Source: Planctomycetota bacterium
Lineage (GTDB): Bacteria; Planctomycetota; UBA1135; UBA2386
Reading direction: 5' to 3'
Assembly (NCBI GenBank): GCA_965223545.1
Contig: OZ245006.1
Span: forward strand, 960,001 to 1,024,000
Length of the DNA: 64,000 nt
Position numbers and translations under genes: made by a program. Below the pieces are notes generated by a model. It had not been told where the DNA came from and ran no database searches. It saw only the letters and a list, made by a program, of their open reading frames with translations. Below, piece by piece: positions 6,657 to 59,980 of this stretch. Positions within the stretch are counted from its first letter, which is position 1; the number at the start of each line of letters is the position of its first letter.

Positions 6657-8132
6657 TCAGCCGCGCAGGCGGCGGACGGCATCCATCAGGTCCACGACGG
6701 TCGTCAGCTTGGCGCGCACCTTGCCGGCGGCCTCGCCGCGCTCGCGCTCGTAGGCGTCGAGGCGCAACCAGTCGTCGTAGCTGACGTAGTCGACTCCGCG
6801 CTGGTGGAGCAGGGCGGGCACGCTTTCCGCATCGTCCGGCGGCAGCGGGTCGGCATCGCCTGTGGTGGCGACGTCGGCGAGCAGGGCCTGCACGGTGAGC
6901 TTGGAGTCCGGGCTGTTGGTGCCGATCAGGCCGGTCGGGCCGCGCTTGGCCCAACCCACCACGTACTCGAAGGGCCGCACCGCGCCGCCGGGCGCGTCGA
7001 GCACTCGACCGTCGGCGTTGGGGATGACGCCAGCGCGTGCATCGAAGGGAACCCCCTCGATCGGGATACCTCGGTAGCCGATGGCCCGGAACACGAGCTG
7101 GACCTCCTCGGTCGAGAATCGCTCGGTGGCGCGCGGGCGCGGCGTGCCGTCCTCGGCGGCGTACAGCTCGTTGTGCTGCAAGCGAATGCCGCTCACCCGC
7201 CCCTCGTTGCCGAGGATCTCGACGGGCGAGATCAAGAACTGACACCGCACGCGGCGCGGTGCTCCAGCGGGCGGTCGCAGACTCGCCTCGCGCAAGTAGC
7301 GCACGTTGCGCTGCGCCGCGCGCGGCGCAGCCGTCTCCAGCCACTGCTGCGACACCGGATCGAGCTCCATCGCCGCAGCATCGACCTGAAGCTCGGCCCC
7401 TTCGACGGCGCCGACCTCCTCGATCTCCTTCGGCGAGAACGCCGCCTGCGCCGGGCCGCGGCGCCCGAGCAGCAGCACCTCGCGCACCCTGCTCCGCCGC
7501 AGCGCGTCGAGGGCGTGCTCGGCGATGTCGGTCGCGGCGAGCGCGTCCGGCGGCGACACCAGGATGCGGGTGACGTCCATCGCGACGTTGCCGTTGCCGA
7601 CGACCGCGACCCGCTCCGCCCCTTCCAACCCGAACTCACGATCGGAGAAATCCGGATGGCCGTTGTACCAGCCGACGAAAGACGTCGCCGAGTGCGAGCC
7701 GGTGAGATCCTCGCCCCCGATCCCCATCGCCCGATCGCTCTCGTTGCCGACCGCGTAGATCAGCGCGTCGTAGCGCGAACGCAGCTCGTCGACCTGCACG
7801 TCACCACCGAGCCGAACGTTGCCGAAGAAACGAAAGCGCGGATCGGCCGCGGTCTTCTCGTAGACCTTGACCACCGACTTGATCTTCTGGTGGTCGGGCG
7901 CCACACCGCCGCGCACGAGCCCGTACGGGGTCGGCAGCCGGTCGAAGACATCACAGCGCACCACCAATTCCGCCGCCTTGAACAGGGCTTCCACGGCGTA
8001 GAACGCCGATGGTCCCGAGCCGATCACCGCGACTCGCAGCGGCCGTTCGGCAGTCCCAAGCGGGCCGCCGGCATCTCCGACGCGCGTGCTGTTGGATCCA
8101 CTCAAGCTACATCTGTCCTGGCCCGTGGCCAC
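6657..8132 (-). CDS. Ferredoxin--NADP(+) reductase (adrenodoxin reductase/FprA type)
   Basis: VAVIGSGPS, PYGLVRGGVAPDH, FVGWYNGHP, GNGNVAMD, GWAKRGPTGLIGTN. Confidence 0.92.
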   Translation of the reverse strand: MATGQDRCSLSGSNSTRVGDAGGPLGTAERPLRVAVIGSGPSAFYAVEALFKAAELVVRCDVFDRLPTPYGLVRGGVAPDHQKIKSVVKVYEKTAADPRFRFFGNVRLGGDVQVDELRSRYDALIYAVGNESDRAMGIGGEDLTGSHSATSFVGWYNGHPDFSDREFGLEGAERVAVVGNGNVAMDVTRILVSPPDALAATDIAEHALDALRRSRVREVLLLGRRGPAQAAFSPKEIEEVGAVEGAELQVDAAAMELDPVSQQWLETAAPRAAQRNVRYLREASLRPPAGAPRRVRCQFLISPVEILGNEGRVSGIRLQHNELYAAEDGTPRPRATERFSTEEVQLVFRAIGYRGIPIEGVPFDARAGVIPNADGRVLDAPGGAVRPFEYVVGWAKRGPTGLIGTNSPDSKLTVQALLADVATTGDADPLPPDDAESVPALLHQRGVDYVSYDDWLRLDAYERERGEAAGKVRAKLTTVVDLMDAVRRLRG

Positions 8133-37114: not shown

Positions 37115-38464
37115 TCAGGGCTCACCAAGCACCCTTGCCGCCGCCGCCAACACGCGCCGGTTCCAGTCGGTCGCGGCGGCGCGGACCCCCAACCTCCGAA
37201 AGTCCGCGGGCCGGCGCGCGACGACGACATCGGGCAGCACCCCCCGCCCCTGCACCGCCCGCCCGCCCGCGTCCGCGATGCGGCGCGCGCCAAAGGTCAG
37301 CACCGAGCCGTCCGGCCCACTGACCCGTTCCACCATGGCCTCCGCGCCGGCCGTGCGCTCGCCGACCACCAGCGCGCGCCCCTCGTTCTGCAGCACGCGG
37401 GTGAAGTGCTCGGCCGCACTCGCGGTCTGGGCGTCGACCAGGATCGCCAACCGCCCGCGGAACGGCCGCTCGCGCACCGGCACGCGCCAGGTGGCGAAGC
37501 GCTCGCGGCGCACCAGCCCCCCCAACCACTCCTCGACGTCCGAGTCGCTGACCAGCGTGGCCTCGGCGGCGAGAAAGCGCCCCAGGGTGTGCGCCATCAG
37601 CTCGGAGCGGCCACCGGGGTTGCCGCGCAGGTCGAGGATCAGCGCACGCCACGCCAACACCGCGTCGATCTGCCGGTCCAGCACCTGGCCGGCGCGCTCG
37701 ACGTCGCCGTCTTCGGCGCCGTCTTCGACGATGCGACCGGGCGCGAAGCTCGAGATGGCCAACACCGGCACGCCGGCGACCTCTCCCTCGCCGCGCACCT
37801 CGACCGACCAAAACGCGCCGCGCGCCGCCTCGTCGGCGGCGCGCTCCGGCCGGCGCAACCCGTGGCGCGACTCGGTGCCGTCGCTCCAGCGCAGCTCGAG
37901 GTCGGCGATCGAGCCGGGGCGCCCGCGCAACAGATGACGCACCAACGACGGCACCACCGGGTACCCCTCAACCCGAATGAGCCGGGGCAAGCGCGCCGCC
38001 TCACCACTCAGATGGTCCGGCGCGGCCGGCGCCGCCCCCTGCGGCCAGCTCGCGACGTGCGTGTCCCGTCCGATCGACACCAGCTGGAATCCGCGCCGGT
38101 GTTCCAGCGAAGTCACGGCGACGCCATCGACCTCCACCATGCGGTCCGGCGGCAGCTGCAGACTGACGTGGGGATCCTCGAGCTGACTCAACAGACCGGC
38201 GAACCCGCGGTAGAAGTCGATCACCGAGTCCCCGGCAACCGCCACGTCGCGCAGCCGCGCGACCTGCTCCTGCCACGCGGCCCGGCGCCCGGCGAAGAAG
38301 GGATAGTCGCGGGCCAACACCGCCGCGTAGTGCTCGATGGTGCGCAGCCGGAGCTGGTCTTCCGCCGACAGAGCCGACACGTGGCACCCCGCGGCGCTGA
38401 AGAGGACCGCCAACAGGGCCGCGGCGCGGGCCCGCCACCGAAGCCCGCGACGGCGGCGCCTCAC
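37115..38464 (-). CDS. S41-family peptidase, probable lipoprotein
   Basis: LEDPH, LDLRGNPGG, TASAAE, GERTAG, GVLPD; AAGC lipobox; GTGA overlap. Confidence 0.85.
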   Translation of the reverse strand: MRRRRRGLRWRARAAALLAVLFSAAGCHVSALSAEDQLRLRTIEHYAAVLARDYPFFAGRRAAWQEQVARLRDVAVAGDSVIDFYRGFAGLLSQLEDPHVSLQLPPDRMVEVDGVAVTSLEHRRGFQLVSIGRDTHVASWPQGAAPAAPDHLSGEAARLPRLIRVEGYPVVPSLVRHLLRGRPGSIADLELRWSDGTESRHGLRRPERAADEAARGAFWSVEVRGEGEVAGVPVLAISSFAPGRIVEDGAEDGDVERAGQVLDRQIDAVLAWRALILDLRGNPGGRSELMAHTLGRFLAAEATLVSDSDVEEWLGGLVRRERFATWRVPVRERPFRGRLAILVDAQTASAAEHFTRVLQNEGRALVVGERTAGAEAMVERVSGPDGSVLTFGARRIADAGGRAVQGRGVLPDVVVARRPADFRRLGVRAAATDWNRRVLAAAARVLGEP

Positions 38465-39714
38465 CCGGAGCTTCCCGCCGCGCGCGCCAGGTCGTCGGCA
38501 AACAGCTCGAGCGCGCTGAGCACCGGCGCCGCCGCCATCTCGATCAGCGAGCAGCGCCCCTTGCCGCGGGCGAACGCCGCCAGCTTCTGCAGCTTCTCCG
38601 CGTAACCAGGTCCCCGGCCGTCGGCGACGCCGCGCAGCACGTGCACCATCTGGTTGGTCTCCATCCGACACGGCGGGCACTGGCCGCACTGCTCGTCCAT
38701 GAAGAACTGCGCGATCTCCAGGATCCGCGGCAGCGGGTCCTCGCCCTCCTCGACGAAGCTCACGCCGCCGCACCCGAGCGTGCCGCCGAGTTCCGCGAGC
38801 CGGGCGTGATCCATCGGCGTGTCGAGATGTTCGGCGGCCAGGAAGCGGCACGACAGTGCCGGCAAGATCGCGCGCAACGGCCGGCCGCTGCGCGGCCCAC
38901 CACCACAGCCGTAGATCAGCTCGCGGAAGGTGGCGCCGAAGGGCAGCTCGTACACACCCGGCCGGGCGACCCGCTCGCCCAACGTGAAGAGCATCGTGCC
39001 CGCACTGCCCTCGGTGCCGATCGCGCGGTAGGCGTCGGCGCCGTGGCGCACGATCCACGGCACGTGCGCCAGCGTCTCGACGTTGTTCACCGTCGTCGGC
39101 CGGCCGAACAGCCCGGCCTCGCCCGGATACGGCGGCTTGGCCCGCGGCAGCGCCGGCCGTCCCTCGATCGACTCGAGCGCCGCGGTCTCCTCGCCGGCGA
39201 CGTAGGTGGTCGGCGCGCGGTGGATGCGGATCTCGAACGCGAACCGGCCCTCGAACGCTTCGCCGCCGAGCACGCCGGCGGCCTCCGCCTCGGCGATCGC
39301 GTCCTGCGCCGCAGCCAAGGGCGCCTGCATGTCCTCGATCAGGTAGAGGTAGCCGACGCGCGCGCCCGTGGCCAAACCACACAGCGCCATGCCCTCGAGC
39401 ACCGCGTGCGGGTAGTGCGCCACGAGATACTTGTCCTTGTCGCTGCCCGGCTCGTGCTCGCCACCATTGGCGACCACGTAGCGCTCGCCCCCGTCGCGAT
39501 CCTGCGCCGCGGCCAAGCCCCACTTGCGCGCCACCGGGAACGATGCACCGCCGCGCCCACGCAGCCCGGCCGCCGCGACCGCCTCGAGCACCGCGCCGCC
39601 GGCGCCCTCATCCACCGCACGCCGCAGCGCCTCGTAGCCGCCGCGCTGGCGGTAGGCCTCGAGATCCTGGCGCGCCGATCCATCGAGTCCGGTCAGCAGA
39701 ATGCGAGTCGACAC
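38461..39714 (-). CDS. NuoF/HoxF-like NADH-binding flavo-iron-sulfur subunit (stand-alone)
   Basis: GLRGRGGASFP, ANGGEHEPGSDKD, YVAGEETA, VNNVETL, CGQCPPCR..C. Confidence 0.88.
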   Translation of the reverse strand: MSTRILLTGLDGSARQDLEAYRQRGGYEALRRAVDEGAGGAVLEAVAAAGLRGRGGASFPVARKWGLAAAQDRDGGERYVVANGGEHEPGSDKDKYLVAHYPHAVLEGMALCGLATGARVGYLYLIEDMQAPLAAAQDAIAEAEAAGVLGGEAFEGRFAFEIRIHRAPTTYVAGEETAALESIEGRPALPRAKPPYPGEAGLFGRPTTVNNVETLAHVPWIVRHGADAYRAIGTEGSAGTMLFTLGERVARPGVYELPFGATFRELIYGCGGGPRSGRPLRAILPALSCRFLAAEHLDTPMDHARLAELGGTLGCGGVSFVEEGEDPLPRILEIAQFFMDEQCGQCPPCRMETNQMVHVLRGVADGRGPGYAEKLQKLAAFARGKGRCSLIEMAAAPVLSALELFADDLARAAGSSG

Positions 39715-39802
39715 GACGCCCTTTTTGACGCATGGGCGCACCGGGTGCAACCGGGATCGGCGTGCGACCGCAAAGGCCGCTCGTGCTATGGTGCGCGCTT
39801 CG

Positions 39803-41875: not shown

Positions 41876-41882
41876 CGGTCGG

Positions 41883-43298: not shown

Positions 43299-43393
43299 AC
43301 CGACCTCGACCGCATGACACCACGAGGATACCGCAGGTTGGGAAACCCACCCGAACGTTCCCCACCGAGCGGCAGCGCGGTAGCGTCGCCGCC

Positions 43394-44308: not shown

Positions 44309-45117
44309 ACCGCGGCCTCTGGTTCAAGGCGTGGCGCGAGACCCGCATCACCACCGCACTGTTCGCGGCGGCCGCGTTCGCCATGCACCTGGCGCTCGCG
44401 CTGGTGCTGCCGACCTTCTTGAGCGAAGGCCTCGGCGCGCTGGTGCAGGCCGCCCCCTTCCGCGCGGTGATCCGCGCGCTGGTCGGTCCCGCCGGCGATC
44501 AGTTCGGGCCGCAGGTGCTGGTCTCGCTCGCCTGGATCCACCCGGTCGTGCTGACCATCCTGTGGGCGCACGCGGTGGTGCTCGCCGCGCGGCTCCCGGC
44601 CGAGATCGAACGCGGCACGATCGACTTCACCCTGGGCGTGCCGGTCTCGCGCGCACAGGTGATCCTCACCGAGGTCCTGGTGTGGGCCGTCGGGGCGTGC
44701 CTGCTGCTGGCTGCCGAGCTCGGTGGCCACCTGCTCGGCCGCGCACTGGTCGAGCCGCCGTCGGTGCCGACAGCGTGGCAGCTCACTGCCGTATTGGCCA
44801 ACCAGCTGGCGCTGGTGGCGGCGGTGGCGGGCGCCGCGTTCTTCATCGCCGCGCGCAGCGAGCGCCGCGGCCGCGCCACCGGCGCCGCATTCGCCCTGCT
44901 GCTGGCGGCGTTCTTCTGGCACGTGCTCGGTCAGTTTTGGCGCCCGGCCGGCGACCTCGCGTTCTTGGGACCGATGCACTGGTATCGGCCACCCGAGCTG
45001 CTGGCGGAGGGAGCCGCGTTCCCGTGGGCGGCCATCGCGGTGCTGGGCACCACAGCGCTGATCGCTTTCGCCGCCGCGGTCCGCACTTTTGACCGACGCA
45101 ACATCAACACCCTGTGA
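44305..45117 (+). CDS. ABC-2 type permease
   Basis: Multiple TM segments, EIERGT...P.SR; GTGA overlap. Confidence 0.88.
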   Translation: MNRGLWFKAWRETRITTALFAAAAFAMHLALALVLPTFLSEGLGALVQAAPFRAVIRALVGPAGDQFGPQVLVSLAWIHPVVLTILWAHAVVLAARLPAEIERGTIDFTLGVPVSRAQVILTEVLVWAVGACLLLAAELGGHLLGRALVEPPSVPTAWQLTAVLANQLALVAAVAGAAFFIAARSERRGRATGAAFALLLAAFFWHVLGQFWRPAGDLAFLGPMHWYRPPELLAEGAAFPWAAIAVLGTTALIAFAAAVRTFDRRNINTL

Positions 45118-45185
45118 GGGCGAACAGCGCGCGAGGAGGCGCGATACACTGGGCCGACACATTGGGCCCACCCAAGGAGCTCGAC

Positions 45186-47726: not shown

Positions 47727-47727
47727 A

Positions 47728-49158
47728 TCAGCGCACCGGACCCAGCCAGCGCCGAAAGATCTCGCCGACATCGACCCCGGTCACCTCCTCGCACGAGGCC
47801 GGCAGTCGGTCGAGGTCGAGGGGGCGCTCGGCGCCCTCGACCATCAGGCGGCGCACCAGGTCGGCCAAGGACTTCTCGCCGCCGGTCGCCGCGCGGATCG
47901 CTTCGTCGATCTCGAAGGCCATGAGGCCGCCCCGCGCGAACACGTTGCGCCCGGTGCGAAAGTCCTGCGCATAGCGCGTGCTCGCGATGCGCGACACCTC
48001 GGCGAGCGGCAGCGCGTTGAGAAACGCAGGCGAACCCCGCAGCGGAATCCTGAAGCGGCGCCGGACCAGCTCCTGCCGGAAGCCGTCGCCCATCCCGCCC
48101 TCCTCGGCCAGCGCGGCCGCCGCGACGTACTGACCCCACCCCTCGCTGAACCAGATCGAATCGAGGACCGGCGACACCTCCCAGCAAAACGGGAAGTACC
48201 CGGGGCCGGCGCATCGCTTGGGGATCCACGAGTGCGCCATGTGGTGCGCCAGGTTGTAGAGGCCACGCCGCCCGCCGCCCTCCGCTGTGAGCACCATGCT
48301 CGTGTCGGCGAAGATGGTGCAGCTCTCCATGTGCTCCATGGAGAAGCCGTAGCCGTGCTCGGGCGAACGCGGCACGACGAACTCGGCGTGCACCGTGTAG
48401 CGCTTCATCGGCGCGCCGTCGAAGTACGCCGTCAGCGCATCCAACGCCACCACCGCCTGCTGGCCCAAAGCCTCGATCGCCGACGGCGCCTCCGCGTACT
48501 GGACGACGAACAGCGGCACGCTCGCTTGGAACGCGCGCACCTCGATATCGGGCCCCATGATCAGCTGGCTGTCGGCGAGGCCGTAGTAGTCCCTCGCCCT
48601 TGCCGTCGCCGCGCCGCGGCCGGGCTCCGCCTGCGGCGCCAGCGTCGACAGCACCGGCCAGTCGTCGGGGCCACGCGCCACCAGCTCGACCGGCCGGCTC
48701 TCGAATCCCTCGGCGAACGCGAACACCGAGTAGCCGAGCAGGCCCAGATAGCCGGGCCGCGCCTTGGAGGAATCCGCCGCCGTCAGGATCTCCAGCTCTT
48801 GCGCGTCGACGTCGACGGCGTAGCGCACGCGGCGCGCCGCCGCAGGTCCACGACCGAGCTGCCAACGCGGGCCGTCGGCGTCCTTTGCTACTTCGAGGGC
48901 GCGCCCCTCCGCGTCGAAGGCCAAGGGGTCGCGCACCCAGCGATCGTAGGGAACGTCGCCGTAGCCCATCGGCACGGCGCGCGGCATCACCAGCACCCGA
49001 GCCGGTTGGGGTAGCGTCATTTCCACCACCACCCGGCCGTGGACCGCGGGGTCGTAGTCGAGCCGGTAGCGGATTTGCGCCGGGCTGCGCGCGCTCAGCA
49101 CGCCACTGACCAACGCGGCGACGAGTGCGGCGAGCGCGAGAGGCTTGGGGCAAGGCAT
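47728..49158 (-). CDS. M61-like metallopeptidase homolog (HHxxH variant)
   Basis: LADSQL, SMEH, AHHMAHSW.PKR, WFSEG. Confidence 0.75.
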   Translation of the reverse strand: MPCPKPLALAALVAALVSGVLSARSPAQIRYRLDYDPAVHGRVVVEMTLPQPARVLVMPRAVPMGYGDVPYDRWVRDPLAFDAEGRALEVAKDADGPRWQLGRGPAAARRVRYAVDVDAQELEILTAADSSKARPGYLGLLGYSVFAFAEGFESRPVELVARGPDDWPVLSTLAPQAEPGRGAATARARDYYGLADSQLIMGPDIEVRAFQASVPLFVVQYAEAPSAIEALGQQAVVALDALTAYFDGAPMKRYTVHAEFVVPRSPEHGYGFSMEHMESCTIFADTSMVLTAEGGGRRGLYNLAHHMAHSWIPKRCAGPGYFPFCWEVSPVLDSIWFSEGWGQYVAAAALAEEGGMGDGFRQELVRRRFRIPLRGSPAFLNALPLAEVSRIASTRYAQDFRTGRNVFARGGLMAFEIDEAIRAATGGEKSLADLVRRLMVEGAERPLDLDRLPASCEEVTGVDVGEIFRRWLGPVR

Positions 49159-49256
49159 GCGTCGCCCCCAACATATCGGCGATGGAGCGCGGGCGGGCCA
49201 CCGCCGCGCCATCGACACCCGGTGAAGCGCAGGCCCGGCGCGCGTAACGTGTCGCC

Positions 49257-50288
49257 ATGAACTTGCAGGACAAAGTCGCGCTGGTCGCCGGCGCGACGCG
49301 CGGCGCCGGCCGCGGCATCGCCCGCGCCCTCGGCGAAGCGGGCGCGGTGGTCTACTGCACCGGGCGCAGCAGCCGCGGCGGCGACGTCGATCCCAAGCGG
49401 CCCGAGACGATCGAGGAGACCGCCGAGCTGGTCGATACCGCTGGCGGCCGCGGGATTCCGGTGCGCGTCGACCACACCGACGAGGCGGCGGTCGAGACGC
49501 TGTTCGCCCGCGTGCGCGACGACCACGGCCGGCTCGATCTCCTGGTCAACGACATCTGGGGCGGCGACGCGCTCACCGAGTGGGGTGTGCCCTTCTGGCT
49601 GGCCGACGTCGGGCAGGGGTTCACGATGATGGAGCGCGCCATCCACACGCACATCATCACCAGCCGGCACGGCGTTCCGCTGATGCTCGACGGCGAGGGC
49701 GGGCTGGTCGTCGAGCTCACCGACGGCGCGTTCTACGGCTACCGCGGCCAGCTGTTCTACGACCTGTGCAAGATGTCGGTGATCCGGCTCGCGTACGCGA
49801 TGGCGGTCGAGCTCGAAGACCAGCCGATCACCGCGGTGGCGATCACGCCCGGCTTTCTGCGCTCGGAGGCCGTGCTCGACCACTTTGGCGTCGAGGAAGA
49901 CAACTGGCGCGACGCGATCGCCAAGGACCCCCACTTCGCGGAGTCCGAGACGCCGCTCTTGGTCGGGCGCGCGATCGCCGCGCTCGCCGCGGATCCCGAT
50001 GTGCGGCGCTACAACGGCCAGGTGCTGGCGAGCTGGGACGTCACCAGGCACTACGGCATCACCGACGTCGACGGCCGACGACCCCACTGGGACGAGCATC
50101 TCGACGGCGCGATCGAAGAGCTGTTGGAACGCGACGCACCGAGCGCCGACGACTTGATGCTGCTCGGGTTTCGGCGTTCGCAGCTGGACTTCGACGCGGG
50201 GCGCGCGGCGCAGCGCGCGCGCATCGATGCGTTTCTCGAGCGACACCGGCGTGCGGCGGGCGGTGGCTCGGCCGCGGCCGATCAGTGA
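49257..50288 (+). CDS. SDR-family oxidoreductase
   Basis: AGATRGAGRG, LVND, YDLCK, PGFLRSE. Confidence 0.9.
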   Translation: MNLQDKVALVAGATRGAGRGIARALGEAGAVVYCTGRSSRGGDVDPKRPETIEETAELVDTAGGRGIPVRVDHTDEAAVETLFARVRDDHGRLDLLVNDIWGGDALTEWGVPFWLADVGQGFTMMERAIHTHIITSRHGVPLMLDGEGGLVVELTDGAFYGYRGQLFYDLCKMSVIRLAYAMAVELEDQPITAVAITPGFLRSEAVLDHFGVEEDNWRDAIAKDPHFAESETPLLVGRAIAALAADPDVRRYNGQVLASWDVTRHYGITDVDGRRPHWDEHLDGAIEELLERDAPSADDLMLLGFRRSQLDFDAGRAAQRARIDAFLERHRRAAGGGSAAADQ

Positions 50289-52648
50289 GCGGCGTGTTGC
50301 AGGACGAGCCGGTAGTCGTCCGCGTCCGTCGCCAACGGGACCGCGCCGCGCAGCGACCCATCGCCAGTGCGCAGGGTCACGGCCGCGCGGCGAATGGCGA
50401 GCGACACTCCGTCCGCCAAGGAGTCCCAGCTTTGGCGCCAGGCCGCCAGGACGACGCCAGCGGCGTCGACCGTTTCTAGCGGAACGGCGGAGGGCGTGGC
50501 GCCGCGCTCGCCCATCTCCGCCCGCAGCCGCACCACGCGTGTCGGCGGCACGTCCAGCTGGAGGTGCTGGACCGCGCCGGGGCCGAGCTCGACCTGCGCG
50601 ACCAGGTGGGGCACGCGTTCACCGGCAACCTCGACGCGGTAGCGGCCCGGCCCGAGCGGCGGATCGCGCATCGCGGGGCCGCTGCCGAAGACCAGCGTCG
50701 AGCCGGCGTCGCCGCGGCACAGACCGACGCGGCGTCCCCGGTCGAAGGCGGCGGCCGCAACCTTGCCGCGGAGGTCGGCGCCCGAGAGCGCGATGGTCAG
50801 AGTGACCGGCTCCGGGATGCGCACCGCGTGCGCGGCCTCCGAGTCAGCGCGGATCGGGACAACGGCGCGCACCGGCGGCGCCCCCGGCACCACGACGCGG
50901 ACCTCGGTGTCGCCTTCGTAGAGCGGGCCGATGCGCTGGGGCTGCACCGGTGCCAACGCCATCGACTTCAACCAGCGGGCGCCGATGTTGACCAGCACGA
51001 CCTGGCCCCCGGTGAAGGCGCGGCCGTCCTCGTGCGCCACGTCGAGCACCAACCAACCGTCGCCGCGCGGCGGCACCGGCAAGTGCAGTTGCAGTTCCGG
51101 GTCGCCTGGGCGCACCTCTTCGGCGAGCACGCACTGGATGTTGGCTCCTTCGTACGGCAGGGCGCCGAGCGCGTAGGGCAGCAGCGGGCAATCCTCGAAC
51201 TCGAAGCGGCCGGCCGCGTCGGTCTCGGTGCGGAACCTCTGCGGCGAGGCCATCAGGTGCACTTCCCAGTTGGCGGCGGGGGTGCCGTCGGCGTGCGCGA
51301 GAGTACCAGCGATTCCGCCGCGTGCCGACTCGGCATCGAGTTCGAGATCCCACACCGCACGCTCACCGGCGACCAACATCAGCTGCTCGCGGTGCAGGCG
51401 GCTGTCCGCGAGCCCGGCAGTCGCGCTGCAGCGACCCGCTGGCAGCGCATCGAGCGAGAATGCACCGTCGGCGTCGGTCGCGGTCGCGCGCCACCACGCG
51501 GTTCCCGCCGCGTCGGCGGCGCCGCGCACGGTGATGCGGACACCGGCGAGCGGGCGGCCGTCGCGGCGCACCACGCCAGCCAGCACCGCGCCCGGCGTCA
51601 GCTCGATGCGCAGCGTGGTCTCGGCTCCGGCGGCCAGCGCGAACGCCGCAGTCGCCGGCGCCCAGCCCGCCGCGGTCACGCGCACGCTGCCGCGACCGGC
51701 GGGGATGCCGTGCGCGACGAACGCGCCATTCTCATCGGTACTGGTCGACACGCACGGCAGCGCCGTGGCGGAGCCGTAGGTCGCGTCGGTCGGATCCGGT
51801 GTCCCCGGCAGATCGTCGGCGCGCACCGAGACCTCGATGCGCGCCGCGGCGAGCGGTTGCCCGGCCGCGGTCACGACACCGCGCACCACTCCGGGCGTCG
51901 CTCCGAGGACGAGGCGCACCGGAGTCGCGCCGTGCACGTCGGCGATCCGGCCGACCATGCGCGACGGCGCCCAGCCGGGGGCGCGGGCGTGTAGGTAGGC
52001 GCCGGGTTGCCACAGGCGCACGGCGAACGCGCCGGCCGCATCGGTCCGCGCGACGCAGGCCTCGTCGCGCAGGCTGTCGTCATTCGGGGTGGCAATCACT
52101 TCTGCGCCGGCGACGCCGCGGCCGCTGGCGTCGACGACTTCGCCGAGGATGCGCGGGCCGCGCGCGAGCTCGATGCGCACGCGCTGCGTTCCCGCGGGCA
52201 GATGCCCGCGCCAGGCCAGTGGTTCGATCGCGTAGTCGCCGGGCGAGAGATCGTCGAAGCGTGCGATACCCCTCGCGTCGGTGCGCGCTCTGAGCGGCGC
52301 CGGGGCAGAGTGATCGAGCGGCTGCAAGCGCACGGCGTAGTCCGGCACCGGACTGCCATCGATCGCTGCGTAGAGCTCGAGCTCGAGGTGCGCGGTCGGC
52401 GTGGAGACGGGGGTTGCCGGCCTGGCCGGCGCCGTCGAGACGGCGGCAGGCTCCGCTATCGATCTGGGCGAAGCGGCGGCCGGCACTTCTGGCTCTTGCG
52501 CCGGGTCCGCGGCCGGAGCGTTCACCGCGAGAACGGGCGGCGCGGCCGGGCGGGGCAGGGCCAGCACCGCGAGGGCGCAGGCGAGGGGCGCCAGGCCCCA
52601 CCACGCGAGCCGCCTGCGCCGACGAGACCTTGCCACCGGCGTTTCCAT
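50282..52648 (-). CDS. Membrane-anchored carboxypeptidase-regulatory-like repeat protein
   Basis: N-terminal TM; repeated G.V....G.P / TD..G.F motifs. Confidence 0.78.
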   Translation of the reverse strand: METPVARSRRRRRLAWWGLAPLACALAVLALPRPAAPPVLAVNAPAADPAQEPEVPAAASPRSIAEPAAVSTAPARPATPVSTPTAHLELELYAAIDGSPVPDYAVRLQPLDHSAPAPLRARTDARGIARFDDLSPGDYAIEPLAWRGHLPAGTQRVRIELARGPRILGEVVDASGRGVAGAEVIATPNDDSLRDEACVARTDAAGAFAVRLWQPGAYLHARAPGWAPSRMVGRIADVHGATPVRLVLGATPGVVRGVVTAAGQPLAAARIEVSVRADDLPGTPDPTDATYGSATALPCVSTSTDENGAFVAHGIPAGRGSVRVTAAGWAPATAAFALAAGAETTLRIELTPGAVLAGVVRRDGRPLAGVRITVRGAADAAGTAWWRATATDADGAFSLDALPAGRCSATAGLADSRLHREQLMLVAGERAVWDLELDAESARGGIAGTLAHADGTPAANWEVHLMASPQRFRTETDAAGRFEFEDCPLLPYALGALPYEGANIQCVLAEEVRPGDPELQLHLPVPPRGDGWLVLDVAHEDGRAFTGGQVVLVNIGARWLKSMALAPVQPQRIGPLYEGDTEVRVVVPGAPPVRAVVPIRADSEAAHAVRIPEPVTLTIALSGADLRGKVAAAAFDRGRRVGLCRGDAGSTLVFGSGPAMRDPPLGPGRYRVEVAGERVPHLVAQVELGPGAVQHLQLDVPPTRVVRLRAEMGERGATPSAVPLETVDAAGVVLAAWRQSWDSLADGVSLAIRRAAVTLRTGDGSLRGAVPLATDADDYRLVLQHAAH

Positions 52649-52700
52649 GTTCTGGACATCGGCTGCCGCGGCCGGCCGCTGTAGGTATCCTCGGCCGCCA

Positions 52701-53384
<684 letters not shown>

Positions 53385-53449
53385 GCCGGGCTTCCGTGGC
53401 GCGCGGCCGATGCGGCGCGGATGTGATGCGTGGGAGCCTGACCTGAAAC

Positions 53450-54832
53450 TCACCCAGCCTCGGCGATCGGTATGAGCTTGTACCCGAGGGATTTAGCGTT
53501 CTGTCGGAGTCCGACGATGCGTCGCTGGGTGAAGCGCTCCTCGTAGGCCTTGGCGCCTTCGTCTACGTAGTCCTGGCCGAACTTCAGCATGCGGTAGATG
53601 AGCAGGGCCAGTTTGCGGGCGATGGCAAAGATGGCGACGTTGCCGTCCTTCGCGCGGGCGATCTTGCGGAAGTGTGCGCCGAGAGCTGTCTGAGTACGTT
53701 GGAGGGACAGGGCGGCCATCCGGAGGACCGTGGCGATCCTGCTGACCGCGATGTTGTTGCGGTGCTTCTTGATGCGCTTTCCACCCGAGACGGCTTGACG
53801 TGGGCACAGGCGTAGCCAGGAGACGAAGTGCTTCTCGGTCGGGAAAGCTTCGAGGTCGTAGCCGACCTCGGTGAGCACGATCATGGCCGTGCTCGGGCTG
53901 ATACCGTCGATTCGCGTGAGATCACACCCGACGAGCCGGCAGAGGGCATCGCGAAGCTCCCGGCCGCCCTTCGTTCGGATGCTCCTCTCCTTGCGGGGGT
54001 CTGGATGCTCGGGGACGTCGGCCGTCTTGGCTTCCTCCGGTTGCAGGTCCTCGATCATCGCCATCAATCGCTTCTCGACCGACTCGATCTCGTGGTCGGT
54101 GTGCTCGAGCATCCGCAAGCCCGAAGCGAGAGTGAAGATGTGCTCCTCGATCCAGGTCCCTTGCAAGTGATCCGCGAGCTCCTTCTCGGAGATCTTGCAG
54201 CGCGGATCACGCAGTCTGGCGAGCGCTCGAGGGTCGCGTTCACCAGCGAGAATCGCGCGGATGATCGCGAGGCCGGTCTTGCCGGTGATGTCCGTTACCG
54301 CGCGATGGATCGCCACGTTCATCTGATCCAGTGACCGCTGCATCAACTGCGTGTGGCGCGTGCGCTGCGCGATCAAAGACGCGGCATGGCGTTGCAGGGT
54401 CCGCAACGCACAGATGTCCTTCGGAGGCCGGAACGAAGCGCGAATGAGGCCATAGGTGTGTAGCTTCTGCAGCCAACTGCAATCGCTGGCATCGGACTTG
54501 GAGCGGCCCGGCACGTTCTTCACCTCGCGGGCATTCGCGAGGATGACCTCGAAGCCTCTCGACTCGAGTAGCTCGTAGACGGGAATCCAGTAGACATAGG
54601 TGCTCTCCATCGCGACGGATCGCACTCCGAGCTCCTCCAGCCAGTCCGCGAGCGCCTCTAGCTGGGGCGTCGTCGTTCCGAATCGCTTGATCGGACGACT
54701 GCCGTCGGGTGCTGCTGCGCACACCCAGTGCTCGCGGCTGCCGATGTCGATTCCGGCGGCGTTGGGCTTCACGACTGGCAATACTTCCGCTGCGGGCTTC
54801 TTGCCCTTCCTCGTTCTGCTCTTCCCAGCCAT
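53450..54832 (-). CDS. IS110-family transposase/recombinase
   Basis: DEDD residues in GIDIG, AMEST and KSDASD; IDGI; catalytic Ser region SGGK; AIARKLA. Confidence 0.95.
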   Translation of the reverse strand: MAGKSRTRKGKKPAAEVLPVVKPNAAGIDIGSREHWVCAAAPDGSRPIKRFGTTTPQLEALADWLEELGVRSVAMESTYVYWIPVYELLESRGFEVILANAREVKNVPGRSKSDASDCSWLQKLHTYGLIRASFRPPKDICALRTLQRHAASLIAQRTRHTQLMQRSLDQMNVAIHRAVTDITGKTGLAIIRAILAGERDPRALARLRDPRCKISEKELADHLQGTWIEEHIFTLASGLRMLEHTDHEIESVEKRLMAMIEDLQPEEAKTADVPEHPDPRKERSIRTKGGRELRDALCRLVGCDLTRIDGISPSTAMIVLTEVGYDLEAFPTEKHFVSWLRLCPRQAVSGGKRIKKHRNNIAVSRIATVLRMAALSLQRTQTALGAHFRKIARAKDGNVAIFAIARKLALLIYRMLKFGQDYVDEGAKAYEERFTQRRIVGLRQNAKSLGYKLIPIAEAG

Positions 54833-54854
54833 ACTTCATCCTCATTGTTGTGGT

Positions 54855-55007
54855 GGGCCCGGCCCGAGGCGGCGATCAAACGAATCTGACCTGCGGGAGT
54901 GGGCACGGCGACGTGCCCCTCACCAGTGAAGGATGGCCAACTCGGACCCAGACTGGCTCTGGGGCAAACGTGCTCCAGTGGCTATTGGGGGCGTAGCTGC
55001 CGGGCCC
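54855..55007 (-). ncRNA. Putative IS110 bridge/seek RNA
   Basis: Closed by a 9-bp stem (54855-54863 / 54999-55007); contains target- and donor-matching segments. Confidence 0.65.
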
Positions 55008-55083
55008 CTCACACGTTCCCCTCCCCCTTCCTCAGCGGCTAGTTTCCTGCCCTGAAGGGCCGACAAATCTGCCGGGGCAGGAC

Positions 55084-55115
55084 TGGCTCCGTACTTTCAT
55101 GGCTCCGTACTTTCA
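55084..55115. repeat. Perfect 16-bp tandem duplication TGGCTCCGTACTTTCA
   Basis: 55084-55099 equals 55100-55115. Confidence 0.9.
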
Positions 55116-55448
55116 GTATGGCGAGTCCAGCATCTGCCAGAGGATGTCCTCGACGTCGGGCTCGACCTTGCCGGTCAGCCGGGCGACGGGCTCGGCCTCG
55201 CCCTTGATGTGGGCGACGATGTCGGGCAGATCGGCTTCGGTGACTTCGCTGTAGAAGATCCGGTCGGGGTAGAGGGTGACGTTGACGGCGTGCTCGCAGC
55301 CGCCGAAGCAGGGGTAGCGCCGCAGCCGCACCCGCTCTTCGTCGGGGTCGATCTCCTGCAGCATCTCCTTGAGCTTGTCGTGCAAGTCGCCGGAACCGCG
55401 CTCGGTGCAGTCCCCACCTTCGCACACGTAGCAGAGTCGTTCGGTCAT
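55113..55448 (-). CDS. Thioredoxin-like [2Fe-2S] ferredoxin
   Basis: VCEGGDC...CFGGC..VTLYPD..Y..V; directly downstream of boxB. Confidence 0.85.
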   Translation of the reverse strand: MTERLCYVCEGGDCTERGSGDLHDKLKEMLQEIDPDEERVRLRRYPCFGGCEHAVNVTLYPDRIFYSEVTEADLPDIVAHIKGEAEPVARLTGKVEPDVEDILWQMLDSPY

Positions 55449-55482
55449 TGGGCTCGTGGGTGGCTAAAGCGCCGGTGCGCGA

Positions 55483-56898
55483 TCAGTGGAACTTGACGTA
55501 CTCGAACTCGAACGGCTGGTCGTTGACGCCGCGGGCGGGCGGCGCGATCCAGTTGGCGATCTTGCCGGGCTCGTGCACCTTGACCATGCACGCCTTGACG
55601 TAGTCGCGATCGGCCTGGCTCGGCAGCCACTGCTCGATCCCCTTGGCGAACGCCTCGGCGCTGATCGGCTCGCCCTGTGGGTTGAAGTGGTGGCCGGCGT
55701 AGATGCCCTGCTGGCGGTTGAAGCGCTGGCTCGGCAGGGTGACCACCGCGTCGAGGTCGAGCCGCTTGAGGTCGCGGTTCCAGCGGTCGACGATCCGCTT
55801 GCAGTCGGCGACGTAGTTGTCCAAGAGCAGCGCGTTCATCGCCCGGCGCAGCGGGATCTCGCGCTCGACCAGGCGGCCGTCCTCGGGCACCACGGTCTTG
55901 TAGTTGGCCTGCAGCGCGGTCGGGTCCTTGTAGACACCGTCGCCCTCGCGATAGCGGCCCTTGAGGCCCGAGGCGAACGACTCGGCGGCGTTGGTCGAGT
56001 CCTCGCCGCCAAACAGGTCCATCGACGCCGACGCCCAGTAGTTGATGTAGCGCTGCACGATGTCGAGCGGGATCGCGCCCTGGCTGCGCGGGTCGACGCC
56101 GTCGCGCATCAGCTCGGCGGCGCGCTTGATGATGCGACCGATGCCGTTCTCACCGGTCTGCATGTGGAACGCCTCCTCCGCCAGCATGAACTGCGTGGTG
56201 CGGGCGAGGGGGTCGAAGCTGCTCTCGGCCAAAGCCGCCAGCTGGTACTTGCCGTCGCGGTCGGTGAACGTCGTGAAGGCGAAGAAGTCGAGCCAGGTCT
56301 CGATCGGGTTGTTGAACGCCTGCAGGATCCGCGGGTGGTCCTCGTTGCCGCTGCGGCGCTCGAGCAGCGCCTCGGCCTCATCGCGGCCGTCCGCGCCGAA
56401 GTGCGTGTGCAGCAGGTAGACCATCGCCCACAGGTGGCGCCCCTCCTCGACGTTGACCTGGAACACGTTGCGCAGGTCGTAGAGCGACGGCGCGGTGTGG
56501 CCGAGCAAACGCTGCTGCTCGACCGACGCGGGCTCGGTGTCGCCTTGCGTGACGATCAACCGGCGCAGGCGGTTGCGCATCTCGCCCGGCACCTCGTCCC
56601 ACACCGGCTCACCGATCGAGTCGCCGAAATGGATCTTGCGGTCCTCGACCGCGTCGGCGAGGAAGATGCCCCACCGATAGTCCGGCATCTTGACGTAGTC
56701 GTAGTGCGCCCAGCCGCCCTTGCCGACGCCGATCGCCGTGCGCAGATAGATCTGGTCCTGCTTGAAGTCGCTCGGCCCCATCTCGTTCCACCAGTCGAGA
56801 TAGCTCGGCTGCCACTTCTCGAGCGCGCGGCACAGCCGCTTGTTCTCGCGCAGGTTGACGTTGTTGGGGATCTTGGCTTCCAGGTCGACGGCGCTCAT
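55483..56898 (-). CDS. boxB: Benzoyl-CoA 2,3-epoxidase diiron subunit
   Basis: KIPNNVNL, VKMPDYRWGI, QGDTEPASVEQQR, VEEGRHLWAM, DRDGKYQL, EEAFHM. Confidence 0.96.
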   Translation of the reverse strand: MSAVDLEAKIPNNVNLRENKRLCRALEKWQPSYLDWWNEMGPSDFKQDQIYLRTAIGVGKGGWAHYDYVKMPDYRWGIFLADAVEDRKIHFGDSIGEPVWDEVPGEMRNRLRRLIVTQGDTEPASVEQQRLLGHTAPSLYDLRNVFQVNVEEGRHLWAMVYLLHTHFGADGRDEAEALLERRSGNEDHPRILQAFNNPIETWLDFFAFTTFTDRDGKYQLAALAESSFDPLARTTQFMLAEEAFHMQTGENGIGRIIKRAAELMRDGVDPRSQGAIPLDIVQRYINYWASASMDLFGGEDSTNAAESFASGLKGRYREGDGVYKDPTALQANYKTVVPEDGRLVEREIPLRRAMNALLLDNYVADCKRIVDRWNRDLKRLDLDAVVTLPSQRFNRQQGIYAGHHFNPQGEPISAEAFAKGIEQWLPSQADRDYVKACMVKVHEPGKIANWIAPPARGVNDQPFEFEYVKFH

Positions 56899-56899
56899 C

Positions 56900-58528
56900 T
56901 CAGGTCCTCTTCCAATCGAATCGGGCGGTCTCGGGCTTGCCGTAGCACACCAGCGCGCCGTCCTCGCCGACGGCGTTGGGACGGCTGAATATCCAGTTCT
57001 GCCAGGCGGTCAGCCGGCCGAAGATCTTCGAATCGCAGGTCTCGCCGCCGGCGAAGCGCAGCGAGGCCTCCATGCCGGTCAGCGCATCCGGACTGAGCGA
57101 GGCGCGCTCCTCGATGGCGATGCGCACCTCGTCCTCCCAGTCGATGTCGTCGGCGAGCACGGTGACCAACCCCAGCTCGTCGGCACCGGCCGCGTCGACG
57201 CGCGGCCGCTCGGCGGCGAGCTGCGCGGCGCGCTCGGGCTCGGCCAAGAAGCGGCTCTGCAGGCGCGTGAGGCCATTGCTCATCGGCAGCGCGCCGGCAC
57301 TGAGCGGCCCAACGGCGAAGTGCACCGGGTGGTCGGGGTCGTCGAGCGCGTAGACCCGGTCGCCGGCCAACGCCAGCTCCAAGAACAGGCCGGCCATGCA
57401 GCTCTCGGCGTCGGCGATCGCGAAGAAGCTGCGCGCGGTGAGCTCGTAGCGGCGCGCCACCCGGGCCCACAGCAGCAGGATCTCGTTGCACAACCAGTGG
57501 TCGCGGTTGTCCAGCAGCGTCTGCTCGACGGCAAGCAGCGCGTCGATGTCGCCGCGCGGGTGCAGCAACACCAAGCCGTGCTCCTGATAGCCGAAGCGAA
57601 GCTGGCACAGCGCGTCGTCGAGCTCGCGGGCGAACTGCAGCGCCCAGCTTCGATCGCCGGCGGCGAGGTAGGCGGCGCCGTCCGCGGGCTGCTCACCCGT
57701 CGGGCCGCGCACCTCCAGCCGCACGGTGCGGCCATCGGCGTCGAAGCGCAGCGCCACGTGCTCGTACTCGAGACCATCCTCGGTCTGCTTCGGCCGGATC
57801 GGTGACAGCTCGATGCCCGACTCCGCCCGCACCGGGTGCTCTGCGGCGAGCGCGGTGGCGCGCTGGGCGACGCCCTCGTCGAACTTGGAGCGCGGCCAGA
57901 AGCCGTCGATCAAACCCCACTGCACCGCGCGCTTGCCCTTGACGCCCTCGGCCAGCGTCGAGAACACGTCGGCGCGGTCGCGGCGGATCTTGCGCTTGTC
58001 GACCAGCCGCGTCAGCCCCCCGGTGCCCGGCAGCACGCCGAGCAGCGAGACCTCGGGCAGGGACACCGCGCTGTTGCCGTCCTCGATGAGGTAGATCTCA
58101 TCGCAGGCGATGGCCAGCTCGTAGCCGCCGCCCGCGCACGGGCCGTTGAGCGCGGCGATGAACTTCACCCCCGAGTGCCGGCTGGCGTCCTCGATGCCGC
58201 AGCGCGTCTCGTTGGTGAACTTGCAGAAGTTGACTTTGAACGGGTGCGGCGAGCTCGCCAGCATGTTGATGTTGGCACCGGCACAGAACACGCGGTCGGT
58301 GTCGCTGGTGACCACCACCGTGTTGACCTCGGGGTGCTCGAAGCGGATCCGCTGGATCGCGTCCGCCAGCTCGAGGTCGACGCCGAGGTCGTACGAGTTC
58401 AGCTTGAGCTCGTAGCCGTCGCCGTAGGGGTGGGACGGGTCGACGGCCATCGCCAGTCTGGCGATCGGACCGTCGAAGCTCAGGTTCCAGTGGTGGTACT
58501 GATCGGGATGCCGGTTGAGATCGATCAT
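56900..58528 (-). CDS. boxC: 2,3-epoxybenzoyl-CoA dihydrolase
   Basis: KLNSYDLGVD, QRIRFEHPEV, KVNFCKFTNETR, PDALTGMEA, GRLTAWQNWIF. Confidence 0.95.
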   Translation of the reverse strand: MIDLNRHPDQYHHWNLSFDGPIARLAMAVDPSHPYGDGYELKLNSYDLGVDLELADAIQRIRFEHPEVNTVVVTSDTDRVFCAGANINMLASSPHPFKVNFCKFTNETRCGIEDASRHSGVKFIAALNGPCAGGGYELAIACDEIYLIEDGNSAVSLPEVSLLGVLPGTGGLTRLVDKRKIRRDRADVFSTLAEGVKGKRAVQWGLIDGFWPRSKFDEGVAQRATALAAEHPVRAESGIELSPIRPKQTEDGLEYEHVALRFDADGRTVRLEVRGPTGEQPADGAAYLAAGDRSWALQFARELDDALCQLRFGYQEHGLVLLHPRGDIDALLAVEQTLLDNRDHWLCNEILLLWARVARRYELTARSFFAIADAESCMAGLFLELALAGDRVYALDDPDHPVHFAVGPLSAGALPMSNGLTRLQSRFLAEPERAAQLAAERPRVDAAGADELGLVTVLADDIDWEDEVRIAIEERASLSPDALTGMEASLRFAGGETCDSKIFGRLTAWQNWIFSRPNAVGEDGALVCYGKPETARFDWKRT

Positions 58529-58658: not shown

Positions 58659-59414
58659 GTGACCACTTCGCTCGCCCAGCACCTCGGCGCCACCGTCCGC
58701 GCGCTGCGCAAGGCGCGGCGCTGGCCGCGCCGCGAGCTCGCCGCCGCGACCGGCATCTCCGAGCGGTTCTTGGCCGACATCGAGGCCGGCCGGGGCAACC
58801 CGTCGCTGCAGCGGTTGGCCGAGCTGGCGGCCGCCCTCGGCACGACACCCGCCGCCCTGCTCTCCGCGCCCGTCTCCGAGCGCCGCGACACGATCGCACT
58901 CCTCGGCCTGCGCGGCGCCGGCAAGAGCACCATCGGCCGGCTGCTGTCCGAGCGACTGGGCTGCGCGCTCGTCGAGCTCGACGGCCACGTCGAGAGCGCC
59001 GCCGGCCTCACCTTGACCGAGCTGTTCCAGCTGCACGGCGAGGCCTACTTCCGCCGGCTCGAGGGCGAGGCACTGACGGCCTTGCTGGCCGAGCCCGGGC
59101 CACGCGTGCTCGCCACCGGCGGCGGCGTCGTGCAGACGCCATCGACCTTCGAGCGCCTCCAACGACACACGCACACCGTTTGGCTGCAGGCCTCACCCGA
59201 AGACCACTGGACGCGCGTGATCGCCCAGGGTGACACCCGGCCGATGGCCGACAACGCGCAGGCCTTCGGCGATCTGTGCGCGATCCTCGCCGAGCGCGAG
59301 CAGCGCTACCGACAAGCGCACATGATCGTCACCACTTCCGACCGGAACGCGGACGAGGTCGCCGACGAGCTGGCGCTGCACTTCGCCTACCTGAGGGCAG
59401 AGGAGCGGCAGTGA
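58659..59414 (+). CDS. boxR: BzdR/BoxR-type regulator (XRE HTH + shikimate-kinase-like domain)
   Basis: SERFLADIEAGRGNPSL; GLRGAGKSTIG; ATGGG; RVIAQGDTRPM; divergent from boxCB. Confidence 0.88.
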   Translation: MTTSLAQHLGATVRALRKARRWPRRELAAATGISERFLADIEAGRGNPSLQRLAELAAALGTTPAALLSAPVSERRDTIALLGLRGAGKSTIGRLLSERLGCALVELDGHVESAAGLTLTELFQLHGEAYFRRLEGEALTALLAEPGPRVLATGGGVVQTPSTFERLQRHTHTVWLQASPEDHWTRVIAQGDTRPMADNAQAFGDLCAILAEREQRYRQAHMIVTTSDRNADEVADELALHFAYLRAEERQ

Positions 59415-59980
59415 GCGACGACGGGGCGCTGCGCCGCGCGCTGGGACCGGCGATCGGCGCGTGGCGGTCGCGGCCCCGCATGCGCGACGCCGCGGTGCTG
59501 GTGCCGCTGGTGCGGGACGCCGGCCAGGACTGGCTTCTGCTGACCCAGCGCCGCGCCGACCTGCGCAACCACGGCGGCCAGATGTCGTTCCCCGGCGGCA
59601 GCCGCGACGGCGACGAGAACGCCCTCGAGTGCGCGCTGCGCGAGACCCACGAGGAGATCGGCGCCGCCCCCGACCACGTCGACGTGCTCGGGCGACTCGA
59701 CGACATCGCGACGACGGAGCGCTTCGCGGTGGCGGCCTTCGTCGGCCGGCTCGGCGCCCTCGATGGCCTGCGCCCCGACCCGAACGAGGTCGAGGCGCTG
59801 GTGCCGATCCCCGTTGCCGAGCTGCGCCGCGCCGAGCGCTGGGAGTGGCGGCCGTGGCGGCGCCGCAACGGCGTCGTCGTGCAAGTGCCCCACTTCGCGC
59901 ACGACGGCTACATGCTCTGGGGGATGAGCGGCTGGCTCACACAGCAGCTGCTGCAGCGCTGGTTCGGAGAGGCGGAGTAG
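59411..59980 (+). CDS. Nudix CoA pyrophosphatase
   Basis: AAVLV, LLTQRRADLRNHGGQMSFPGG, ALRETHEEIG, LWG; GTGA overlap with boxR. Confidence 0.88.
   Translation: MSDDGALRRALGPAIGAWRSRPRMRDAAVLVPLVRDAGQDWLLLTQRRADLRNHGGQMSFPGGSRDGDENALECALRETHEEIGAAPDHVDVLGRLDDIATTERFAVAAFVGRLGALDGLRPDPNEVEALVPIPVAELRRAERWEWRPWRRRNGVVVQVPHFAHDGYMLWGMSGWLTQQLLQRWFGEAE

Follow-up and report, generated by a model that had tools for sequence, protein, structure and literature searches.

The window analysed here, a stretch of 64,000 nucleotides from a Planctomycetota bacterium (contig OZ245006.1, positions 960,001 to 1,024,000), carries on its minus strand a benzoyl-CoA epoxidation (Box) operon, and the genome to which it belongs is without BoxA, the reductase of the classical BoxAB system. 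In the position of boxA, behind the epoxidase gene boxB, lies the gene of a small thioredoxin-like [2Fe-2S] ferredoxin. We consider it quite probable that BoxB is reduced in this organism by a two-protein chain, in which electrons would pass from NADH to a NuoF-like flavoprotein encoded in the same window, from there to the ferredoxin, and finally to BoxB. The arrangement, in which a probable electron chain unrelated to BoxA stands in its stead, is conserved and represents a new version of the Box system. The proposal concerns four genes:

56900..58528, minus strand: boxC, encoding the BoxC dihydrolase (TIGR03222, 746.6 bits against a cut-off of 712.3)
55483..56898, minus strand: boxB, encoding the diiron benzoyl-CoA 2,3-epoxidase, of the ferredoxin-linked clade (TIGR03225, 674.1 bits against a cut-off of 499.1)
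55113..55448, minus strand: thioredoxin-like [2Fe-2S] ferredoxin of 111 amino acids, the predicted electron donor of BoxB (four cysteines, fold match, adjacency to boxB, complex score)
38461..39714, minus strand: stand-alone NuoF-like flavoprotein of 417 amino acids with flavin mononucleotide (FMN) and a [4Fe-4S] cluster (PF01512, PF10531, PF10589)

The cluster runs in the order boxC, boxB, ferredoxin gene, with gaps of 1 nt and 34 nt, and is followed by an IS110 insertion sequence (IS) and then by a convergent short-chain dehydrogenase/reductase (SDR) gene. The boxB product matches PDB entry 3PER with an E-value of 6.6e-170, and its residues E122, E152, H155, D213, E242 and H245 are invariant in all 96 aligned BoxB sequences; we take these six to be the iron ligands, and their numbering agrees with the 3PER match. 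A sequence-only reading of this DNA had described a boxC-boxB-ferredoxin cluster in which a 111-residue thioredoxin-like [2Fe-2S] ferredoxin occupies the position of BoxA, with no boxA beside boxB and a convergent gene next in line. This description proved sound: boxC and boxB exceed their family cut-offs, a ferredoxin with four conserved cysteines and the fold of the HydB N-terminal domain and the Aquifex ferredoxin follows them, and the convergent gene is the SDR beyond IS110.

Nor was boxA found anywhere else in the 8.1-Mb, two-contig assembly, which is 91% complete. Profile TIGR03224 gave at best 40.6 bits (NqrF) and 28.2 bits (a cluster motif) against a cut-off of 459.2, and a second profile, built from the BoxA sequences of 17 betaproteobacterial loci in which BoxA directly follows boxB, returned only the same two weak matches. 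The genome search that the earlier reading had proposed, for boxA together with benzoate-CoA ligase, thus finds the ligase (TIGR02262, 560.1 against 375.25) without boxA. BoxD is likewise encoded elsewhere in the genome (NF008868, 633.4 against 444), and the ligase, BoxB, BoxC, BoxD and BoxR all score above the cut-offs of their families.

The ferredoxin itself falls just below the cut-off of PF01257 (24.3 against 24.8 bits) and below those of the curated families fdxn_Clost (NF041612, 32.1 against 150), fdxn_Azotob (NF041613, 33.6 against 195) and NuoE (TIGR01958, 21 against 142.4). By sequence and by fold, its closest solved relatives are the N-terminal domain of HydB and the ferredoxins of Aquifex and Azotobacter; the structural model has a predicted local distance difference test score (pLDDT) of 88 and a template-modelling score of about 0.7 to both 1F37 and 1M2A. 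Among 93 homologues, Cys9, Cys47 and Cys51 are invariant and Cys14 is conserved in at least 90%, and in the 34 copies linked to boxB all four cysteines are invariant, in the pattern C-x4-C ... C-x3-C. The homologue alignments also reveal an acidic and conserved C-terminal helix.

One set of 201 genomes of the class, with families labelled f1 to f8, was surveyed for BoxB, BoxA, the ferredoxin, the NuoF-like protein and an FNR that is discussed below. BoxB is present in 191 of them and looks like a core gene of the class, being kept even in assemblies of 1.8-2.5 Mb, and BoxA was found above its cut-off in none of the 201, with six partial FNR-domain matches. Ferredoxin matches at E 1e-5 occur in 114 genomes; close orthologues, defined by an E-value of at most 1e-33 (the next matches follow only at 2e-13), occur in 50, namely in 39 of the 40 genomes of f1 (this genome counted), 4 of 4 in f4 and 7 of 7 in f5, with none in f2, f3 and f6-f8. 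In all 48 genomes with listed boxB coordinates, the ferredoxin gene follows boxB at a distance of no more than 400 nt; the remaining two of the 50 lacked such coordinates, and one of these, G193, proved to have the same order. In metagenomes, where 80 of 113 ferredoxin loci were examined, boxB adjoins the ferredoxin gene in all 63 loci with at least 400 nt of upstream DNA, and boxA appears in none of the 80. The survey of boxB neighbourhoods suggested by the sequence-only reading therefore finds the ferredoxin kept beside boxB, and neither of the outcomes that this reading had named as refuting, a boxA elsewhere or a ferredoxin not conserved beside boxB, was obtained. In a tree of 96 BoxB proteins the 34 ferredoxin-linked ones form one branch with a support of 100, and G097, a member of f1 whose BoxB falls outside this clade, has neither the ferredoxin nor the NuoF-like gene.

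These counts also bear on a trivial explanation, namely that boxA was lost to an assembly gap or to an IS-caused deletion and that the ferredoxin is a neighbour by chance. The incompleteness of the assembly would allow for a gap, and a mobile element does begin 28 nt behind the ferredoxin gene:

53439..55084 (transposase 53450-54832), minus strand: IS110 element, a bystander (NF033542, 247.9 bits against a cut-off of 140)

However, the element sits in the middle of a palindrome, an intergenic repeat of roughly 30 bp of which the genome holds 85 empty copies for comparison, and since both palindrome halves flank IS110, nothing was deleted, as the sequence-only reading had concluded from its reconstruction of the site. 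With the palindrome intact, IS-caused loss of boxA was rejected, and in view also of the class-wide absence of BoxA and the unbroken linkage of ferredoxin and boxB in 48 genomes, we practically discount the whole explanation. The genome contains 22 further near-full copies of the element. The right half-site at this insertion is present as a tandem duplicate (55084-55115), the second copy of which holds the stop codon of the ferredoxin gene, and other IS110 copies are flanked by similar half-site duplications.

The NuoF-like gene lies 15.4 kb downstream of the ferredoxin gene on the same strand. At E 1e-90 the survey detected it in 49 of the 201 genomes, of which 47 hold orthologues and two hold NuoF of complex I; the orthologue is found in 47 of the 50 ferredoxin genomes and in none of the other 151. 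Among the 50, it shares the contig of the ferredoxin in 35, lies on another contig in 12 and gave no match in 3, and in 34 of the 35 same-contig cases it is downstream on the same strand, at a distance of no more than 200 nt in 6, 2 kb in 11 and 30 kb in 32. Of 68 metagenome loci, 19 have it at a distance of no more than 300 nt, and in several contigs it overlaps or abuts the ferredoxin gene. A genome of another Planctomycetota class, one in a 201-genome sample of the phylum, carries boxC, boxB, the ferredoxin gene, an open reading frame (ORF) of 87 amino acids and the NuoF-like gene in one run, with the regulator divergent. In the present window the interval (39788-55084) is occupied by unrelated genes, encoding a glycosyltransferase, an ABC transporter, an FG-GAP protein, an M61 peptidase and two SDRs, and by IS110. 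In relatives, different filler genes span 0-25 kb, and such variation suggests a recurrent insertion site.

The earlier reading had left two reductases open, the NuoF-like protein and the following one:

6657..8027, minus strand, start codon uncertain: FNR of the FprA/adrenodoxin-reductase type, a disfavoured rival reductase (PF07992)

If this FNR, or the general ferredoxin pool, reduced the ferredoxin, the latter would still donate to BoxB, and the NuoF-like protein would have another role. The FNR occurs in 41 of the 201 genomes, including 40 of 40 in f1, the NuoF-like gene is often kilobases off, and other BoxB lineages do without a dedicated reductase, all of which would suit this alternative. 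The FNR is, however, missing from all 11 ferredoxin genomes of f4 and f5, it is present in G097, which has no ferredoxin, and by inspection it is never beside boxB, the nearest case being about 31 kb away, whereas no genome surveyed has the NuoF-like gene without the ferredoxin, and the two genes overlap or abut in several contigs. Because its distribution follows family f1 and not the ferredoxin, we rejected the FNR as reductase of the BoxB chain, and we regard the alternative in its wider form as unlikely. The idea of an alternative chain through the ferredoxin is thus supported with the NuoF-like protein as its likely partner and disfavoured with the FNR.

The properties of the NuoF-like protein are consistent with such a role. 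It matches Nqo1 of Thermus with an E-value of 1.9e-93 and scores 356.6 with TIGR01959, the profile of complex I NuoF, below the cut-off of 558.65; Cys343, 346, 349 and 388 are invariant in 99 homologues, the GRGG, EPG and GEE motifs are conserved, and 98 of the 99 carry a different signature where NADEGEPG would stand. This subfamily also has an additional invariant cysteine, C315, and an altered SLBB loop. A single HydB chain (7Q4V_B) spans both partners, the ferredoxin matching its residues 9-92 and the NuoF-like protein residues 129-524. According to PMC7311640, the pattern of bifurcating HydB proteins comprises A/E232, M234, F367, GGPSG and extra clusters. In the NuoF-like family S91, K93 and Y171 are invariant, GGPSG is found in 0 of 99 members, and there is no extra cluster domain; with this non-bifurcating residue pattern and without extra clusters, the protein would be a plain NADH:ferredoxin reductase. 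The conserved glutamate of GEE suggests that its substrate is NADH, not NADPH, and the protein is likely the NADH:ferredoxin reductase of the Box system. A function as input module of complex I was rejected, since searches of the genome found neither NuoD nor NuoH. The only other NuoF homologue in the genome is the beta subunit of a formate dehydrogenase. The genome carries a Na+-NQR operon (C1:7957468-7960926), and no proton-pumping complex I was found in it.

Prediction of the complex of BoxB and the ferredoxin, with an alignment of 34 rows for each, a 2Fe-2S ligand and three controls, gave a score of 0.63 (runs 0.53, 0.72 and 0.63), the best control reaching 0.00. At least 59% of the contacts are shared between runs, and the partner pLDDT is at least 84. 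Of 157 solved complexes, 116 attain the score mark, as do 2 of 215 mismatched pairs; these figures apply only roughly to this case. In the predicted complex the cluster loops of the ferredoxin (10-15 and 47-52) contact BoxB residues 239-251, which form the helix that carries E242 and H245. The C-terminal helix of the ferredoxin (96-111) also belongs to the interface. The model accordingly places the ferredoxin next to the diiron centre of BoxB, where it is predicted to bind. Nine of 27 clade-specific BoxB positions lie within the predicted interface of 36 residues (Fisher p 6e-5), and when only variable positions are considered, 7 of 24 clade-specific ones do so against 12 of 224 (p 8e-4). The net charge of this interface is +3 to +5 in the ferredoxin-linked clade and -2 to +1 in 18 BoxBs from genomes with BoxA, and the ferredoxin face opposite is acidic, with a mean charge of -2.3. 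We know of no solved BoxB-ferredoxin complex; a PDB search returned four entries, which represent a single BoxB sequence.

The model further bears on a possible stable heterodimer of the NuoE/NuoF type between the ferredoxin and the NuoF-like protein, in effect a two-subunit BoxA, from which electrons would exit via the [4Fe-4S] cluster or a bound ferredoxin. In NuoEF, the cluster face of the ferredoxin-type subunit is buried against NuoF, and it is this face that the predicted BoxB interface occupies; moreover, the NuoF-like gene is often found apart while the ferredoxin gene stays with boxB, and no fused form was seen among 91 longer ferredoxin candidates, which is weak evidence. Although HydB fuses both domains and the two genes overlap in some contigs, we consider a stable heterodimer quite unlikely.

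In the chain that we favour, the ligase would activate benzoate, NADH would reduce the FMN of the NuoF-like protein, and the ferredoxin would take up single electrons and hand two in turn to the diiron site of BoxB. It would act as a shuttle, meeting either partner with the same face and travelling twice for each turnover. Reaction with O2 would yield 2,3-epoxybenzoyl-CoA, and BoxC and BoxD would act next. We infer both this direction of electron flow and the use of NADH over NADPH. In the classical system, according to PMC4498308, the binding of BoxA to BoxB is transient and BoxA is needed in small amounts; such loose and sparing use of the reductase fits a reductase gene that is free to drift.

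A pairing of this kind might extend beyond the Box system. A profile search with the ferredoxin returned 112 representatives at E 1e-10, several of which, when full-length, share the C-terminal helix; the ten records looked up include Binatia, Gaiellales and Deltaproteobacteria. Examples from Binatia and Gaiellales are HEX2228788.1, MDH3442520.1 and MDX6535494.1. On plasmid 2 of Variovorax sp. WDL1 (L233:5735-13287), a Rieske oxygenase gene, a tailed ferredoxin gene (profile probability 97.8%), genes of a dihydroxypyridine pathway and a NuoF-like gene with the same signature and 39% identity are clustered. A plasmid of Rhodococcus pyridinivorans YF3 (L265:5209-9322) encodes the alpha and beta subunits of a Rieske dioxygenase with a more distant NuoF-like protein and a 71-residue ferredoxin of another type. 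No tailed ferredoxin was found in 251 sampled Pseudomonadota genomes, where 23 weak matches stop before the C-terminal helix (two contexts viewed). A supposed resemblance between the Variovorax cluster and Ensifer HpdA proved mistaken, since that enzyme is a molybdenum dehydrogenase. The tailed ferredoxin and its NuoF subfamily may constitute a general module of electron supply to oxygenases, drawn from the complex I and hydrogenase toolkit and serving diiron epoxidases and Rieske oxygenases, with distant members in Binatia and Gaiellales; since there is one direct case outside Box, that of Variovorax, we hold the chances of this wider interpretation to be evenly balanced.

Several observations weigh against the proposed chain. 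Three of the 50 ferredoxin genomes, all incomplete assemblies, gave no NuoF-like match, and the linkage of this gene is loose: it lies within 5 kb in 4 of the 19 metagenome loci that extend a full 5 kb downstream, and in this genome it is 15.4 kb away. All linked cases belong to one BoxB clade, so that the counts do not represent independent events and point to a single origin. The genome also holds a second thioredoxin-like ferredoxin, of the Aquifex type (C1:3523302-3523709; missed by an earlier Pfam search), and an FNR. The GEE glutamate presumably marks NADH as the substrate, a role for which the literature search gave no confirmation. The enrichment of clade-specific positions at the interface ignores surface exposure, treats positions that are not independent and comes from a model that was given the clade alignment, and close cousins of the true partners may also pass the complex-score test.

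More generally, 141 of the 191 class genomes with BoxB lack BoxA as well as the ferredoxin/NuoF-like pair, and 26 of 30 further boxB carriers gave no BoxA; the four with BoxA above cut-off include no member of the Myxococcota or Acidobacteriota, and positive controls passed. With these 141 genomes and other phyla having neither system, other donors can evidently feed BoxB and a generic donor may suffice. Absence of BoxA is not special to this cluster: it is usual throughout the class, and likewise among those boxB carriers of the Myxococcota and Acidobacteriota that were checked. No redox gene was found conserved behind boxB in the other BoxA-less loci (f2, f3, Myxococcota and Blastocatellia), Aquifex-type ferredoxins being all that was seen elsewhere. 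The same BoxB carriers might suggest that the ferredoxin is an accessory of BoxB, acting in metallocentre assembly, reactivation or oxygen protection while a housekeeping system reduces the enzyme, and ferredoxins that maintain iron enzymes do exist, such as XylT and YfaE. However, a dedicated flavoprotein of the NADH type co-occurs with the ferredoxin exactly, and this pair is also found with a gene for a Rieske oxygenase, a kind of enzyme that depends on a catalytic electron chain. An accessory function is thus very unlikely in our judgement, and reduction of BoxB through the NuoF-like protein and the ferredoxin remains the account that we prefer.

On the other side of boxC, the cluster is bordered by its regulator gene, which the sequence-only reading had left unmentioned and whose divergent placement relatives keep:

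58659..59414, plus strand, start codon estimated: BoxR/BzdR-type regulator with a helix-turn-helix and a shikimate-kinase-like domain (NF006015, 264.3 bits against a cut-off of 204)

Its end is overlapped by a gene resembling Nudix CoA-pyrophosphatases (59411-59980), which was not seen beside boxR in related loci. In f2, f7 and f8, Aquifex-type thioredoxin-like ferredoxin genes occur among genes for enoyl-CoA hydratase, acyl-CoA dehydrogenase, kynureninase-like proteins and CoA ligase (L131:3698-7116, L243:677-2964, L259:1489-2549, L260:467-3290, L242 and L249). In several of these loci the ferredoxin gene stands right before a short ferritin-like ORF (matching PF05138 in L243; no match in L259 and L131), which is possibly a second ferredoxin-diiron pair.

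To our knowledge, few physiological partners of thioredoxin-like [2Fe-2S] ferredoxins have been identified, and the present locus offers a concrete candidate partner for one of them, together with a complex-I-type flavoprotein that would serve an oxygenase. Should the general module be real, these ferredoxins would have a definite function, that of handing electrons directly to a diiron centre. For one BoxB clade a candidate replacement of BoxA can now be named, and four soluble proteins would be involved. Annotation counts boxBC without boxA as an incomplete pathway, and PMC10803450 interprets missing BoxA as an impediment to the pathway; with BoxB in 191 and BoxA in none of the 201 class genomes, aerobic ring opening of benzoyl-CoA is probably far commoner than counts based on boxA imply. 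Our literature search, whose coverage left most subscription journals outside, found nothing on a replacement of BoxA or on Box genes in Planctomycetota.

Compared with the BoxAB/BoxC/BoxD/BoxR system of Aromatoleum (Azoarcus) evansii and Burkholderiales, the present system has BoxB, BoxC, BoxD, the ligase, the regulator and the six iron ligands in common. BoxA is characterized in PMC4498308 as a protein with flavin adenine dinucleotide (FAD) and two [4Fe-4S] clusters that uses NADPH. Here, in contrast, no BoxA was found and a [2Fe-2S] ferredoxin takes its position, boxR is divergent instead of co-directional, and the BoxB of this clade is distinguished by a basic surface and by two inserted residues at 320-321. 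Three-part diiron monooxygenases and related enzymes, such as toluene 4-monooxygenase and acyl-ACP desaturase, combine a reductase, a ferredoxin and a hydroxylase, with ferredoxins of the Rieske or plant type and reductases of the FNR type. The proposed logic is alike, in that a free ferredoxin would shuttle single electrons to a diiron centre, but here the components would be a ferredoxin with the thioredoxin fold and an FMN/[4Fe-4S] protein of the NuoF type. HpdABCDE is termed an atypical diiron monooxygenase in PMC8313251 and, like HpoBCDF, is a published system for the oxygenation of pyridine rings; if either included a NuoF-type reductase, it would be an experimental precedent for the reductase half of the proposed chain. 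With the diaphorase modules NuoEF, HydB, HoxF and FdsB, the pair shares the NuoF core, the nucleotide-binding motifs, the four cluster cysteines and the ferredoxin fold of NuoE and the HydB N-terminal domain; unlike them, the NuoF-like protein has no adjoining NuoG, hydrogenase or formate dehydrogenase subunit and has NADEGEPG replaced, and the ferredoxin lacks the N-terminal domain of NuoE. The free thioredoxin-like ferredoxins of Aquifex (1F37) and Azotobacter (FeSI, 5ABR) are alike in fold and cysteine spacing, whereas the box ferredoxin has an extra conserved C-terminal helix and a fixed link to an oxygenase. The clusters for oxygenation of pyridine rings in Variovorax WDL1 and Rhodococcus YF3 also combine a NuoF-like gene with a ferredoxin gene, but their terminal enzyme is a Rieske oxygenase.

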